Origin: a virus
Lineage: Duplodnaviria; Caudoviricetes
Direction: 5' to 3' (one strand)
DNA length: 39,906 bases
Virus record (IMG/VR): IMGVR_UViG_3300030107_003716
Coordinates: 1-39,906 of that record
Part shown: positions 7,286-11,384 of the stretch, piece by piece
Position numbering within the stretch: position 1 is the stretch's first letter
Layout of the letters: the number at the start of each line of letters is the position of its first letter
Notes under the pieces: model-generated
What the model saw: only the letters and a program-made list of their open reading frames with translations
Database searches by the model: none
Told to the model about the DNA's origin: nothing
Translations under genes and position numbers: made by a program

Positions 7286-7312
7286 AAAAAAGGCCCAATT
7301 AAGGGCCTTTTT
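7286..7312. terminator. Bidirectional terminator between convergent operons
   Basis: AAAAAAGGCCC-AATTAA-GGGCCTTTTT. Confidence 0.85.
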
Positions 7313-7336
7313 CTTACTAGGGGATGGGCGTACTCT

Positions 7337-7688: not shown

Positions 7689-8831
7689 TTATATCGTCCT
7701 TTCATTTAGTGTTGATTTGGTTTTTGATACCTCACTAGCAATCTGATTTGCTATGTAAGTTTGTGTTACTTTACTGCCAAGCGTATGACCTAGCTGTCTT
7801 TGTACTGAGTCCAATGAATGACCATTGGAAATAAGATGGGTAGCTAATGAATGCCTGAATGAGTACTGGCTTAGCTTTTCGCCTTTGTTTTGTTTAATGC
7901 CCAATTTACGGCATACTTTTTTAAAGGCTACATTAGCATTGTCCTGGTCTTTATCTGAGCCACCTAGGCCCCAAATATCGTCTCCTAATGCCTGAATCCT
8001 ATCGCTGATAGGAGTAGCACTCTGTTTCCCAGTTTTGGCTCTATTGGTTATGATACAAGGAATTATCTCACCATTGTCCCCAATACCATTTAACAAATGC
8101 TTTCTCTTGTTTAAATTCCTAGCATCTACTGGTGATAGGGCGGTATCAATCATGATGGTCCAAAGCGTTCTTGTAAATTCATTTGGAGCATTGTCCACAA
8201 TCAATTCAGCTTGGTCCCTGGTCAATACCTGGTAAGGGGTTTTATCACTACCTGGTTTTTTTAATTTGCCTTTCCTGGCATAGTAATTATCCTTCAGGAT
8301 TTTCTCATTGGTTAACCAGGTGTACAGTGGGTTCAAATAGTTGTGTCGCTTTGTAACTGTTTCGGTCTTATTACCTTGAGCGTACTGGTCTGCATAGAAT
8401 CTATTAATATCAGCAGATGTCAATGCGGCCAGGTCAATCTCACAATCCTTTGCAATTCTCTTATCCTTGGTCCAATCTGATTCCTTGCCAAAGAAAACAA
8501 CAAACGGTTTGATGTTGAACAAGTCCCTTAACCAGGTCCTAGAGCGATTCTTTTCATGTGCGACCCAGTCATCGAATATATCTCTTAGTAGGATTGGCTG
8601 TTGCTCATCACTAGGTACATCTAAAACAATAGGGTCTAAACCATGTTTAAGATTAAAAGCCTTATTTTGAGCCTGGGCGTATCTTTCTTTAATTTGAGTA
8701 ACTGTACATTCACGAGAAGTCCCTAATGGAATCTGCATTCTTTTACCGTTTAAAGTGAACCTATATCTGTAGTCTATATACCCAGCAGACCTGACAATAT
8801 TTCTTAGGTTAGGTAGATTAATCTTCCTCAT
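7689..8831 (-). CDS. int: Tyrosine recombinase / phage integrase
   Basis: N-terminal arm-binding-like beta region (YRYRFTLNGKRMQIPLG); RAKTG, YSFRHS, LGH and TQTY catalytic motifs; start at 8831 after an AAAGGA RBS. Confidence 0.9.
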   Translation of the reverse strand: MRKINLPNLRNIVRSAGYIDYRYRFTLNGKRMQIPLGTSRECTVTQIKERYAQAQNKAFNLKHGLDPIVLDVPSDEQQPILLRDIFDDWVAHEKNRSRTWLRDLFNIKPFVVFFGKESDWTKDKRIAKDCEIDLAALTSADINRFYADQYAQGNKTETVTKRHNYLNPLYTWLTNEKILKDNYYARKGKLKKPGSDKTPYQVLTRDQAELIVDNAPNEFTRTLWTIMIDTALSPVDARNLNKRKHLLNGIGDNGEIIPCIITNRAKTGKQSATPISDRIQALGDDIWGLGGSDKDQDNANVAFKKVCRKLGIKQNKGEKLSQYSFRHSLATHLISNGHSLDSVQRQLGHTLGSKVTQTYIANQIASEVSKTKSTLNERTI

Positions 8832-8852
8832 TTTTTTGTCCTTTCTATTTTT

Positions 8853-8921
8853 GATTTCCATAGATACCCCAGTTGCCCAGGGTATTTCGGCCAGGTATCA
8901 CCTGGCTCTCATCGGTATGGA
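8853..8921 (-). ncRNA. Type I hammerhead ribozyme HHR3 (upstream of the integrase)
   Basis: Minus strand: UCCAUA CCGAUGA G A GCCAGGU-GAU-ACCUGGC C GAAA UACCCUGG-GCAA-CUGGGGUA UC|UAUGGA AAUC; predicted cleavage after AUC, between 8863 and 8862. Confidence 0.85.
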
Positions 8922-9470
8922 TTAGTGACTGCTTATATCAAGTTTTTCCTTATCAAAAAAGTTAAAACCAACTTCACCTTTTATAGAACTTATCTGCTTC
9001 CTTAATTCGTCTATCTTATCCTTCATTTCTTTTACATCCTTAAGTGCAGTACTAACCTTATCGATAGGGAATTCATGTACGGGCCAAGTCTTCTCAACAT
9101 CACCAGGTTTAGTATAGTCCCAGTCAGGTCCTAAGCGAACATATTCAGTAACTTTCTCCACTGCACCATTAGGGTAAGGATAGTATAAAATATCCAATTC
9201 TAAACATACACTCTTAGCATACCAGTGTTTAAAGCGAAATTCATATCCAGCATAGCCACGACTATGAAATACATTTTCAGACTGGCAAACGCCTTCAATA
9301 ATTGTCGCTATTTTGCTTTCCAATTTCTTTAACTGATGTGCCCTTAAAGAGTTGTCTTTCTTTTGCTTCCAGTTCTCTGTGAGCCACTCATTGACTCGCT
9401 TACCTACTGTCTGACAAACTACATGAAGTAGTTGTGTATTCCAGACTGAATTATGGTTAAATAGTATCAT
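8922..9470 (-). CDS. Hypothetical protein (182 aa) flanked by hammerheads
   Basis: AAAGGACAATAATCATG RBS; stop codon abuts HHR3. Confidence 0.8.
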   Translation of the reverse strand: MILFNHNSVWNTQLLHVVCQTVGKRVNEWLTENWKQKKDNSLRAHQLKKLESKIATIIEGVCQSENVFHSRGYAGYEFRFKHWYAKSVCLELDILYYPYPNGAVEKVTEYVRLGPDWDYTKPGDVEKTWPVHEFPIDKVSTALKDVKEMKDKIDELRKQISSIKGEVGFNFFDKEKLDISSH

Positions 9471-9592
9471 GATTATTGTCCTTTCTTGATTGTTATTTGA
9501 TTCAAATATGGTGCCAAACCAGTAACCCCTCTAGCGGCCAATTCTGGACCGTTAGAATTATAACTGTTGATGGTTATTTTTATTACTGTTTT

Positions 9593-9657
9593 CGCTTCCA
9601 TAGAAGCCCCAGGAAGGGGCTTTTCGACCAGGTGCGACCTGGTACTCATCGGTATGG
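9593..9657 (-). ncRNA. Type I hammerhead ribozyme HHR2
   Basis: Minus strand: CCAUA CCGAUGA G U ACCAGGU-CGC-ACCUGGU C GAAA AGCCCC-UUCCU-GGGGCU UC|UAUGG AAGCG; predicted cleavage after UUC, between 9603 and 9602. Confidence 0.85.
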
Positions 9658-10200
9658 TTATTTTAATAGCTTATTAGCTTTTCTAATCTCCATCCTAGCT
9701 AGGGCTTCACGGGCGTATCTGGTAACATAACCATCATCATCAAATGCACCAGGATTACCTTCAACTGGATAGGTGTAATGTATTCCATTAATACCAATAA
9801 CGAATTGAGCCTTAGAATCGTCAGCCCTATCACGCTCAGCTTTTGTTTCTACCTGGTAATCTTTGCCACCTACTACGATAGTTCTATTATGACTACCGCC
9901 TTTTTTAGCAGTGTGATATACTGGTGAGAAACGAGCATAACCAGCTTGTATCTCAGCATTGAGTACCTTTACTTGCCAATCAACAGCTTCTTGCCTTTCC
10001 TCAGTGCAGATTATTTTAGTTTCCTTCTTTGTGAAGCCGTCTCCATCTATCCAAACATAATCCCTTTCTTCTTCGACTTCTTTTTTGTCAAAGCTACCAA
10101 ATTCAGGGGTCCACTTATCACCTGGTAAGGCCCAGCCTGATTTAGTAGCGTTGCTTTCTTCAGTTTTGTGTAAAACTAAGAGAGTGTAATAGTTTTTCAT
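9658..10200 (-). CDS. Hypothetical protein (180 aa) flanked by hammerheads
   Basis: Likely start is ATG 10200 (MKNYY) after AAAGGACAATAATC; the longer ORF-track call runs through HHR1. Confidence 0.8.
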   Translation of the reverse strand: MKNYYTLLVLHKTEESNATKSGWALPGDKWTPEFGSFDKKEVEEERDYVWIDGDGFTKKETKIICTEERQEAVDWQVKVLNAEIQAGYARFSPVYHTAKKGGSHNRTIVVGGKDYQVETKAERDRADDSKAQFVIGINGIHYTYPVEGNPGAFDDDGYVTRYAREALARMEIRKANKLLK

Positions 10201-10227
10201 GATTATTGTCCTTTTCTTGTTTGTTTT

Positions 10228-10286
10228 AGTTTCCATAGACCCGTGGGTTTCGGCCCAGGAACCACCTGGGCCATCATCAGTATGGA
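10228..10286 (-). ncRNA. Type I hammerhead ribozyme HHR1
   Basis: Minus strand: UCCAUA CUGAUGA U GGCCCAGG-UGGUU-CCUGGGCC GAAA CC-CACG-GG UC|UAUGGA AACU; canonical core; cleavage after GUC, between 10238 and 10237. Confidence 0.9.
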
Positions 10287-10288
10287 TG

Positions 10289-10675
10289 TTACTCTTCTTC
10301 AGAACCAAACTCTCTGTTTTTATAATTTTGCACAGCACCATCAAGTACATCTTCTTCCTCAGTGAAGACTACGATTGTATTTTCAAGCTCCTTGCTGTAA
10401 TTGACTTGAGTAACAATGGGCCAGTCACCTGATTTTCTGCTGTATGCATCTGGGTGACTGTAATCAACTAGTCTAAGTGTACCCATCCAGTTCCAGATAG
10501 CTAGTTTTTCTGGGTTCTCAGCTACTTTGTAATTATGGATAAATTTGGCATCGAACCTGAATATGCCCTGGTCGATAGTTTTTAAGACATCATGGTCAAT
10601 AGACTTCTTAATGAACTTCTTCCAAGACTCGGTTGTGATGCTGGTTTCTACTTTGTAATCTGTGATGTAAAACAT
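10289..10675 (-). CDS. Hypothetical protein (128 aa), first gene of the integrase operon
   Basis: ATG 10675 (MFYIT) after AAAGGACAATAAAT. Confidence 0.75.
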   Translation of the reverse strand: MFYITDYKVETSITTESWKKFIKKSIDHDVLKTIDQGIFRFDAKFIHNYKVAENPEKLAIWNWMGTLRLVDYSHPDAYSRKSGDWPIVTQVNYSKELENTIVVFTEEEDVLDGAVQNYKNREFGSEEE

Positions 10676-10786
10676 ATTTATTGTCCTTTCTTGTGCCCAG
10701 AACAAAAGCTAAGTCCTGATATTGCTAGACTTACACACTCTGTGTCTCTCTGGTTCTCTTGGGCGTTGATTATTTTCATGTCCTAT

Positions 10787-10814
10787 GTTATAGTGTAACA
10801 CCTATATGTGTCAA
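10787..10814 (-). promoter_or_regulatory. Sigma70-type promoter of the ribozyme/integrase operon
   Basis: Minus strand TTGACA-16 nt-TATAAC, about 110 nt upstream of the first gene. Confidence 0.7.
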
Positions 10815-10907
10815 GTAGTTTTATAAATTAATATATTTGTACTGTAGGATAGTACTGCACCTATATATATACTCAGTGAATTTTATCAGGTAAAAAACAG
10901 GTAGCAC

Positions 10908-11384
10908 ATGAGTAATAAAGGTCAATTTAAAAAGGGACAATCTGGTAACCCACTCGGTAGGCCAAAGACATCAGCGAAGGACTTAGTCAGGATGCATCCC
11001 CAGAAGAATGAGTTAGTACAGAAGCTGTTTGATGTAGCGATGGATGACGGTGACAAAAGGCAAGTATCAGCCTGGCGTATCTTACTGCCAAAGATGGTCC
11101 CAGATTTAAAAGCGATGCAGATGGAAGTCGAGCAAAAGAACATTACTGGTGTCATTGTTCTACCGCCTAAAGTGGAATTGGACCCCAAGAAAATAAGTAC
11201 CAGCGGACAGAGCGAGAGCGAAACTTTTCTTAATCCAGGTCCAGGTGATGTTAGCCAGGCTGAATCCCAGGCCAATGGGCACAATGTGGGCACAAATCAG
11301 TCCTCACCGAGGGAAGGCACACGCTTACAGAGCGAGTCCAGCCCAGTCCCCGACCCAGATGTGCAAGTGAGTGCCGATGCATAA
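10908..11384 (+). CDS. Terminase small subunit-like protein
   Basis: FKKGQSGNPLGRPK N-terminal motif; upstream of the large terminase; low-complexity tail. Confidence 0.7.
   Translation: MSNKGQFKKGQSGNPLGRPKTSAKDLVRMHPQKNELVQKLFDVAMDDGDKRQVSAWRILLPKMVPDLKAMQMEVEQKNITGVIVLPPKVELDPKKISTSGQSESETFLNPGPGDVSQAESQANGHNVGTNQSSPREGTRLQSESSPVPDPDVQVSADA
11275..11296 (-). repeat. Third, inverted pair of the attP arm motif (TTTGTGCCCAC ATTGTGCCCAT)
   Basis: Reverse complement of ATGGGCACAATGTGGGCACAAA. Confidence 0.65.

Follow-up and report, generated by a model that had tools for sequence, protein, structure and literature searches.

Predicted type I hammerhead ribozymes with a co-varying loop II/3′-tail contact lie between the genes of a phage integrase operon

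The window, meaning the whole stretch of DNA analysed here, is a complete virus record of 39,906 bases, and the runs that hold this DNA are labelled marine. Its repressor, replication, integrase, terminase, portal, head and tail-fibre genes indicate a temperate tailed phage. A DNA contig that is possibly the source of the window is identical to it over positions 7783-11000, and a further run from that study contains an exact match to HHR3, the hammerhead that precedes the integrase. A pattern scan of prokaryote genomes for the host returned mostly chance matches, the traceable descriptor matches being hammerheads with other stem II geometry. The hammerhead locus is a minus-strand run of three genes followed by the integrase, and no PHROG or Pfam family matched any of the three upstream genes. 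A weak sigma-70-like promoter match lies upstream of the operon, in a scan that found 23 such sites compared with 12 expected. The features of the locus are given below in the direction of transcription.

10785..10814, minus strand: weak sigma-70-like promoter match (10/12) upstream of the operon
10289..10675, minus strand: first gene of the operon, about 128 amino acids; its stop codon ends 3 nt before stem I of HHR1
10227..10286, minus strand: HHR1, predicted type I hammerhead with the canonical core CUGAUGA (C3 at 10280), an 8-bp stem II and a 3-bp stem III; loop II triplet GGU at 10263-10261, tail triplet ACU at 10230-10228, one of the pairs being G-U; predicted cut at 10238/10237
9658..10200, minus strand: gene of 180 amino acids, function unassigned; start 37 nt past the HHR1 cut, stop directly abutting stem I of HHR2 (0 nt)
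9592..9657, minus strand: HHR2, predicted type I hammerhead with a U4C core (at 9652); loop II triplet CGC at 9636-9634, tail triplet GCG at 9595-9593; predicted cut at 9603/9602
9471..9591, minus strand: long leader after HHR2, conserved along with HHR2 in the loci L009, L012, L044 and L068
8922..9470, minus strand: gene of 182 amino acids, function unassigned; start 132 nt past the HHR2 cut, stop 1 nt before stem I of HHR3
8852..8921, minus strand: HHR3, predicted type I hammerhead with a U4C core (at 8915); loop II triplet GAU at 8899-8897, tail triplet AUC at 8855-8853; predicted cut at 8863/8862
7689..8831, minus strand: phage integrase of 380 amino acids (phrog_1, E 1e-32; PF00589); start 31 nt past the HHR3 cut

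The structural hammerhead descriptor matches the window three times, compared with no match when the whole window was dinucleotide-shuffled 200 times. The minimum-energy fold of all three copies is a three-helix junction (z of -3.5 for HHR3, -2.2 for HHR2 and -2.4 for HHR1) in which stem I is open and stems II and III are closed, the topology of type I hammerheads. The core formed by C3-U4-G5-A6-N7-G8-A9, G12-A13-A14, A15.1-U16.1 and H17 is canonical in HHR1, and the sole deviation in HHR2 and HHR3 is U4C, at positions 9651 and 8914 of the minus strand, which gives the core CCGAUGA. U4C also occurs in nine of the 172 family members described below, seven of which carry a UAUGG stem I strand. 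According to the accessible text of PMC3088659, U4C is a tolerated natural variant whose activity is considerably lowered in vitro and is still enough in vivo for a viroid; HHR2 and HHR3 may therefore cut slowly or partly. In each copy UAUGG, the stem I strand, leads through an AA linker to the tail triplet, at positions 1.8-1.10, which is complementary to the copy's own loop II. Inspection of the minus strand agrees with the three triplet pairs and the preserved spacing reported in a preliminary description of the locus, the end coordinate of which, 10270, was too short, as HHR1 reaches 10286, and which made no mention of U4C. Loop II is better read as five nucleotides (U-NNN-W), and its flanking U can pair with A1.11 in HHR1-3, so that four to five contiguous pairs are possible. 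An extra nucleotide is present at the base of stem II (for example at 10273 and 8907 of the window), to be read as a U before G10.1 or as a bulge after G10.1; the stem II segment begins with UG in 77 of the 172 members.

Homologues were gathered through six pattern scans and an integrase search, which together yielded at least 540 records, the window included, and in these records the descriptor identified at least 216 distinct hammerheads. The family set comprises the 172 among the matches listed that have a stem II segment of 16-23 nt, at least five pairs and an odd loop; it was chosen without looking at the tail, and 44 of the 216 were set aside. Two of the pattern scans fixed GG-AA-NNN-A in the tail, and conservation of that tail is thus partly imposed. 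The 43 members found without a tail constraint, among them the three of the window, all have A1.7, and 39 have A1.11.

All three positions of the loop II/tail contact are paired in 149 of the 172 distinct homologues, compared with a mean of 61.9 and a maximum of 81 over 5000 shuffles of the tails, and slid registers leave 0-11 of the 172 fully paired. Full pairing is likewise displayed by 39 of the 43 members whose tail the search pattern left free. A shifted register accounts for about half of the 23 members that fail to pair in the fixed register. The members whose stem II segment measures 20 nt number 82, and pairs were counted in an alignment of 80 of them, two with a very long stem III being omitted: 97.1% of the 240 cells are paired and 53 cells are changed on both sides, a level reached in none of 500 shuffles and compared with 18-53% for slid registers. 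One triplet position shows four Watson-Crick pair types in this alignment. Stems I, II and III are all changed on both sides among the same 80 sequences, these being stems that the descriptor itself required. On a tree built without the six paired columns, which rests on 55 columns owing to the short sequences and was set against a null of our own making, both partners change on the same branch 10, 17 and 32 times at the three pairs, where the null averages 3.0, 1.9 and 7.0; on the same tree, none of six off-register controls was significant. No co-variation was found on the tree for the fourth and fifth pseudoknot pairs, the fourth being formed in 114 of the 172 members. As only three pairs co-vary and the fourth does not, the contact may need non-canonical support. 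The orthologues of HHR2 carry the loop/tail triplets AGC/GCU (L012), CGC/GCU (L044), CGC/GCC (L009) and CGC/GCG (window), a series that looks like compensation in progress. The covariation seen by the preliminary description in three copies thus extends to the homologues, where it strongly supports a selected tertiary pairing between loop II and the 3′-tail. The same description had taken the compensatory changes as a sign of selection for active cleavage; selection for the pairing is upheld by the co-variation, and active cleavage is likely, though indicated only indirectly, with U4C perhaps slowing two of the copies.

Pseudoknots of this kind have a precedent. As described in the accessible text of Perreault 2011 (PMC3088659), hammerhead pseudoknots occur in all three types and in about 40% of representatives, where they replace the loop-loop contacts of stems I and II; mutation and rescue established that the pseudoknot of a type II example is required for fast cleavage. 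The same text reports that three tandem arrays cleave during transcription and that tandem hammerheads flank single genes, often near integrases, for which processing of polycistronic RNA was proposed. The hammerheads described here resemble those of PMC3088659 in the pairing of loop II with an extension of stem I, backed by co-variation, and in their tandem arrangement near an integrase. In contrast to the ribozyme tested there, a type II hammerhead with a six-pair pseudoknot, they display a stem II of 6-8 bp, a co-varying contact of three pairs and a fixed AA linker. The pseudoknot count in that source required at least four pairs, while the window copies allow four to five and the fourth pair of the family (114/172) is without co-variation. 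The pseudoknot principle and the tandem arrangement being already published, the finding extends a known class and opens no new one.

What appears to be new is a subfamily that falls below every Rfam hammerhead gathering score and in which stem I is located within 0-5 nt of the upstream stop codon in 95 of 165 members. A literature search, covering for the most part papers outside subscription and leaving aside the Perreault type I alignment (Dataset S1), found nothing on the loop-tail subfamily or on the abutting of stop codons. No Rfam hammerhead model matched at its gathering score in the window or in 20 loci holding subfamily members, and the best sub-threshold match is the RAGATH-1 hammerhead RF03152, with 31.4, 25.7 and 21.8 bits compared with a gathering score of 56.3. 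From the accessible text of Zhan et al. 2024 (PMC11300833) we infer that RAGATH-1 (RF03152) is the PK hammerhead of PDB entry 8YDC, which has the same core and an open stem I. In contrast, 8YDC is described there as replacing helix II by a pseudoknot with an upstream hairpin, whereas the window copies have a real helix II and the partner of the loop is the 3′ tail. Membership of the RAGATH-1/PK group was rejected, given a stem II that is a co-varying helix of 6-8 bp and scores of 22-31 bits compared with 56.3. The type I hammerheads reported to act in eukaryotic translation initiation are alike in topology, in their place before ORFs and, in some cases, in a helix II of 6-8 bp but, unlike the window's copies, are reportedly without clear loop-loop contacts.

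The main reading, to which we assign a probability of roughly 80%, is that the locus holds three type I hammerheads in which loop II pairs with the copy's own tail at 1.8-1.10, that this co-varying pseudoknot likely docks stems I and II, that each ribozyme cuts the transcript of the integrase operon between genes, and that the loop/tail triplet pairs, or keys, drift and do not insulate the copies. The computed basis consists of the sequence, the fold prediction, the co-variation, the sharing of keys between neighbours and the placement from stop to start codon; pairing in three dimensions, the effect on rate, cleavage in vivo and purpose would follow by analogy with hammerhead biochemistry. 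The three loop II/tail pairs would dock stem II onto the tail of stem I, and each ribozyme would cut after C17, leaving 5′-OH and cyclic-phosphate ends. The operon message would be split in this way into single-gene RNAs of 635 nt and 740 nt and an integrase RNA, and each product would begin with a 5′-OH and have both a short leader and a ribosome-binding site of its own. The purpose proposed is that the mRNA of each gene has its own stability or is translated separately. Any complementary triplet would presumably work and the loop/tail pair could drift by compensated steps, which would explain why the keys differ between copies. The subfamily forms a compact, well-aligned test set for a swappable three-pair tertiary contact with many natural compensated versions; the scaffold also occurs naturally with U4C, and its position relative to stop codons follows a sharp rule.

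The placement rule is seen in the 165 members with enough flank, in 95 of which the stop codon of an ORF of at least 60 amino acids ends 0-5 nt before stem I (62 at 0-1 nt), with a background of 1-7 members per later 6-nt window and of 1.8% at random positions. These tight placements span 96 distinct upstream C-termini, and the spacings in the window are 3, 0 and 1 nt (10286-10288, 9657/9658 and 8921). The tendency to abut a stop codon is shared by the short-stem type I hammerheads (11/29). On the downstream side, a start codon with a ribosome-binding-like motif follows in 162 of the 172 members, at a median of 39 nt past the cut. The placement flush with the stop might be functional, with the terminating ribosome covering the 5′ strand of stem I and either gating its folding or stripping the products apart, so that cleavage becomes irreversible; such a role, which would be added to the pseudoknot and the cutting and would not replace them, is conceivable and on balance doubtful. 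The tight spacing in the family and in the window speaks for it when compared with terminator-like hairpins of the same loci, 1/16 of which lie within 0-5 nt of a stop (median 21 nt), this control being small, since a stop lay nearby for 16 of the 43 hairpins, and limited, as terminators carry their own need for distance. The argument further relies on the length of the ribosome footprint, and the tight spacing is absent in 70 of the 165 members. If abutting carries no cost, compaction by itself would lead to an identical arrangement, and it explains the abutting as well as ribosome coupling does. The stem I strand of HHR3 and HHR1 contains an AUG (8859-8861 and 10234-10236, minus strand) from which an open frame leads into the integrase and the 180-residue gene, respectively. 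Within the UAUGG group such an open, in-frame AUG precedes 12 of the 22 distinct downstream genes, the 22 being related, and UAUGG is absent from 129 of the 172 members, so that a near-leaderless start at this AUG is at most a possible reading. The leader at 9471-9591 (minus strand) holds a 42-codon ORF that extends from the stem I AUG to just before the start of the next gene.

Comparison with relatives suggests that the ribozyme and its leader form portable units. Among the marine relatives the integrase is constant and the genes between the ribozymes vary, with near-identical ribozymes preceding different genes, and similarity to relatives often spans the edge of stem I to a point near the next start codon. 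In a related contig HHR2 and its leader are followed by 260 other letters and then by the integrase. One related contig departs from the window exactly at 9657. It is tempting, at long odds, to view this widespread phage hammerhead subfamily as a translation-coupled punctuation cassette, flush with the stop, in which the terminating ribosome would gate the cut or separate the products and the unit of ribozyme and ribosome-binding site would double as a joint for swapping accessory genes before the integrase; if so, RNA self-cleavage would tune the expression of the integrase and the accessory genes. A role chiefly in DNA, in which the motifs would persist mainly as repeated linkers of ribozyme and ribosome-binding site for accessory-gene swaps upstream of the integrase and U4C cleavage may be weak, is improbable. 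Such a role could call on the variable genes, the span of similarity and the contig with 260 other letters described above and on the precedent of the PeSL cassettes of T4-type phages (accessible text of PMC2839356), which are likewise repeated small intergenic units among variable accessory genes. PeSLs are, by that account, promoter-terminator units and not ribozymes, and at the window hammerheads recombination is something we infer. The conserved catalytic core and the compensated pseudoknot are unexplained by linkers acting only as DNA, and conserved RNA between divergent genes yields the same BLAST pattern without recombination.

Two further explanations concern the relation between neighbouring copies, in which 25 of 41 adjacent pairs have an identical stem I, compared with 8% between arrays. 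The first of these, rated as quite improbable, is that each pair of ribozymes frees a gene unit, which then closes into a circle; ligation would be favoured by identical stem I strands together with compatible keys, or else mismatched keys would protect the circle. Key-compatible junctions in 27/41 neighbours accompany the identical stem I strands, and in the Schistosoma hammerhead tertiary contacts raise the ligation rate 2000-fold (accessible text of PMC6155905). In contrast, both junctions of the window are incompatible, and the accessible text of Perreault 2011 (PMC3088659) states that spliced or circular products were sought and none detected. Selection for circularisation was rejected as the junctions display no directional bias, 8 being circle-only and 4 skip-only (p 0.39), and shared ancestry thus explains the compatibility of the keys.

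The second, proposed in the preliminary description and now very improbable, is that selection has kept the keys distinct to prevent copies with identical stem I strands from assembling into fully active cross-paired ribozymes. The three keys of the window do all differ, that of HHR2 is incompatible with both others, and pairing is poor at both junctions expected from a released window gene closing on itself. Random draws of three keys from members with the window's stem I, however, yield keys that differ 42% of the time, and the loop of HHR1 pairs with the tail of HHR3 at all five positions, leaving HHR2 alone isolated in the window. Across 28 distinct tandem arrays the tail key is common to 19/41 adjacent pairs compared with 16% between arrays; 12/25 neighbours with the same stem I share the key, 21/25 cross-pair in at least one direction, and in 10/28 arrays two members agree in both stem I and key. 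Although independence does not hold for every array, the direction of key sharing is opposite to that predicted by insulation. Re-picking the register gives 18/39 neighbours and 13/25 same-stem-I neighbours sharing a key; this floating-register count re-keyed five arrays, and the fixed-register counts, which lead to the same conclusion, are preferred. Mutually incompatible pairs with the same stem I, counted for fully paired members in 23 of the 28 arrays, amount to 3/32 within arrays, or 1/29 without the window's array, compared with 13-18% between arrays. Insulation by a copy's own key was rejected at the family level on the key sharing of neighbours (19/41 against 16%) and the incompatible pairs (1/29). 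Since neighbouring copies in other phages often share a key, the differing keys of the window look like drift.

Other elements were noted in the homologous loci and elsewhere in the window. A second type I group with a short stem II of 4-5 bp is present at L050, L091, L092, L110, L171, L217, L242, L290 and L364, several of its members being in tandem and some on marine genome-bin contigs labelled Nitrosopumilus. A pistol ribozyme (69 bits) at L368:4477-4546, minus strand, belongs to the same array as three hammerheads of the loop-tail subfamily. A weak tRNA-like Rfam match (29.5 bits) lies at 1818-1890 on the plus strand of the window, where ARAGORN calls no tRNA, and is possibly a degenerate tRNA. 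Between convergent gene runs, at 7290-7315, a hairpin preceded by A-runs and followed by T-runs has the look of a two-way terminator.
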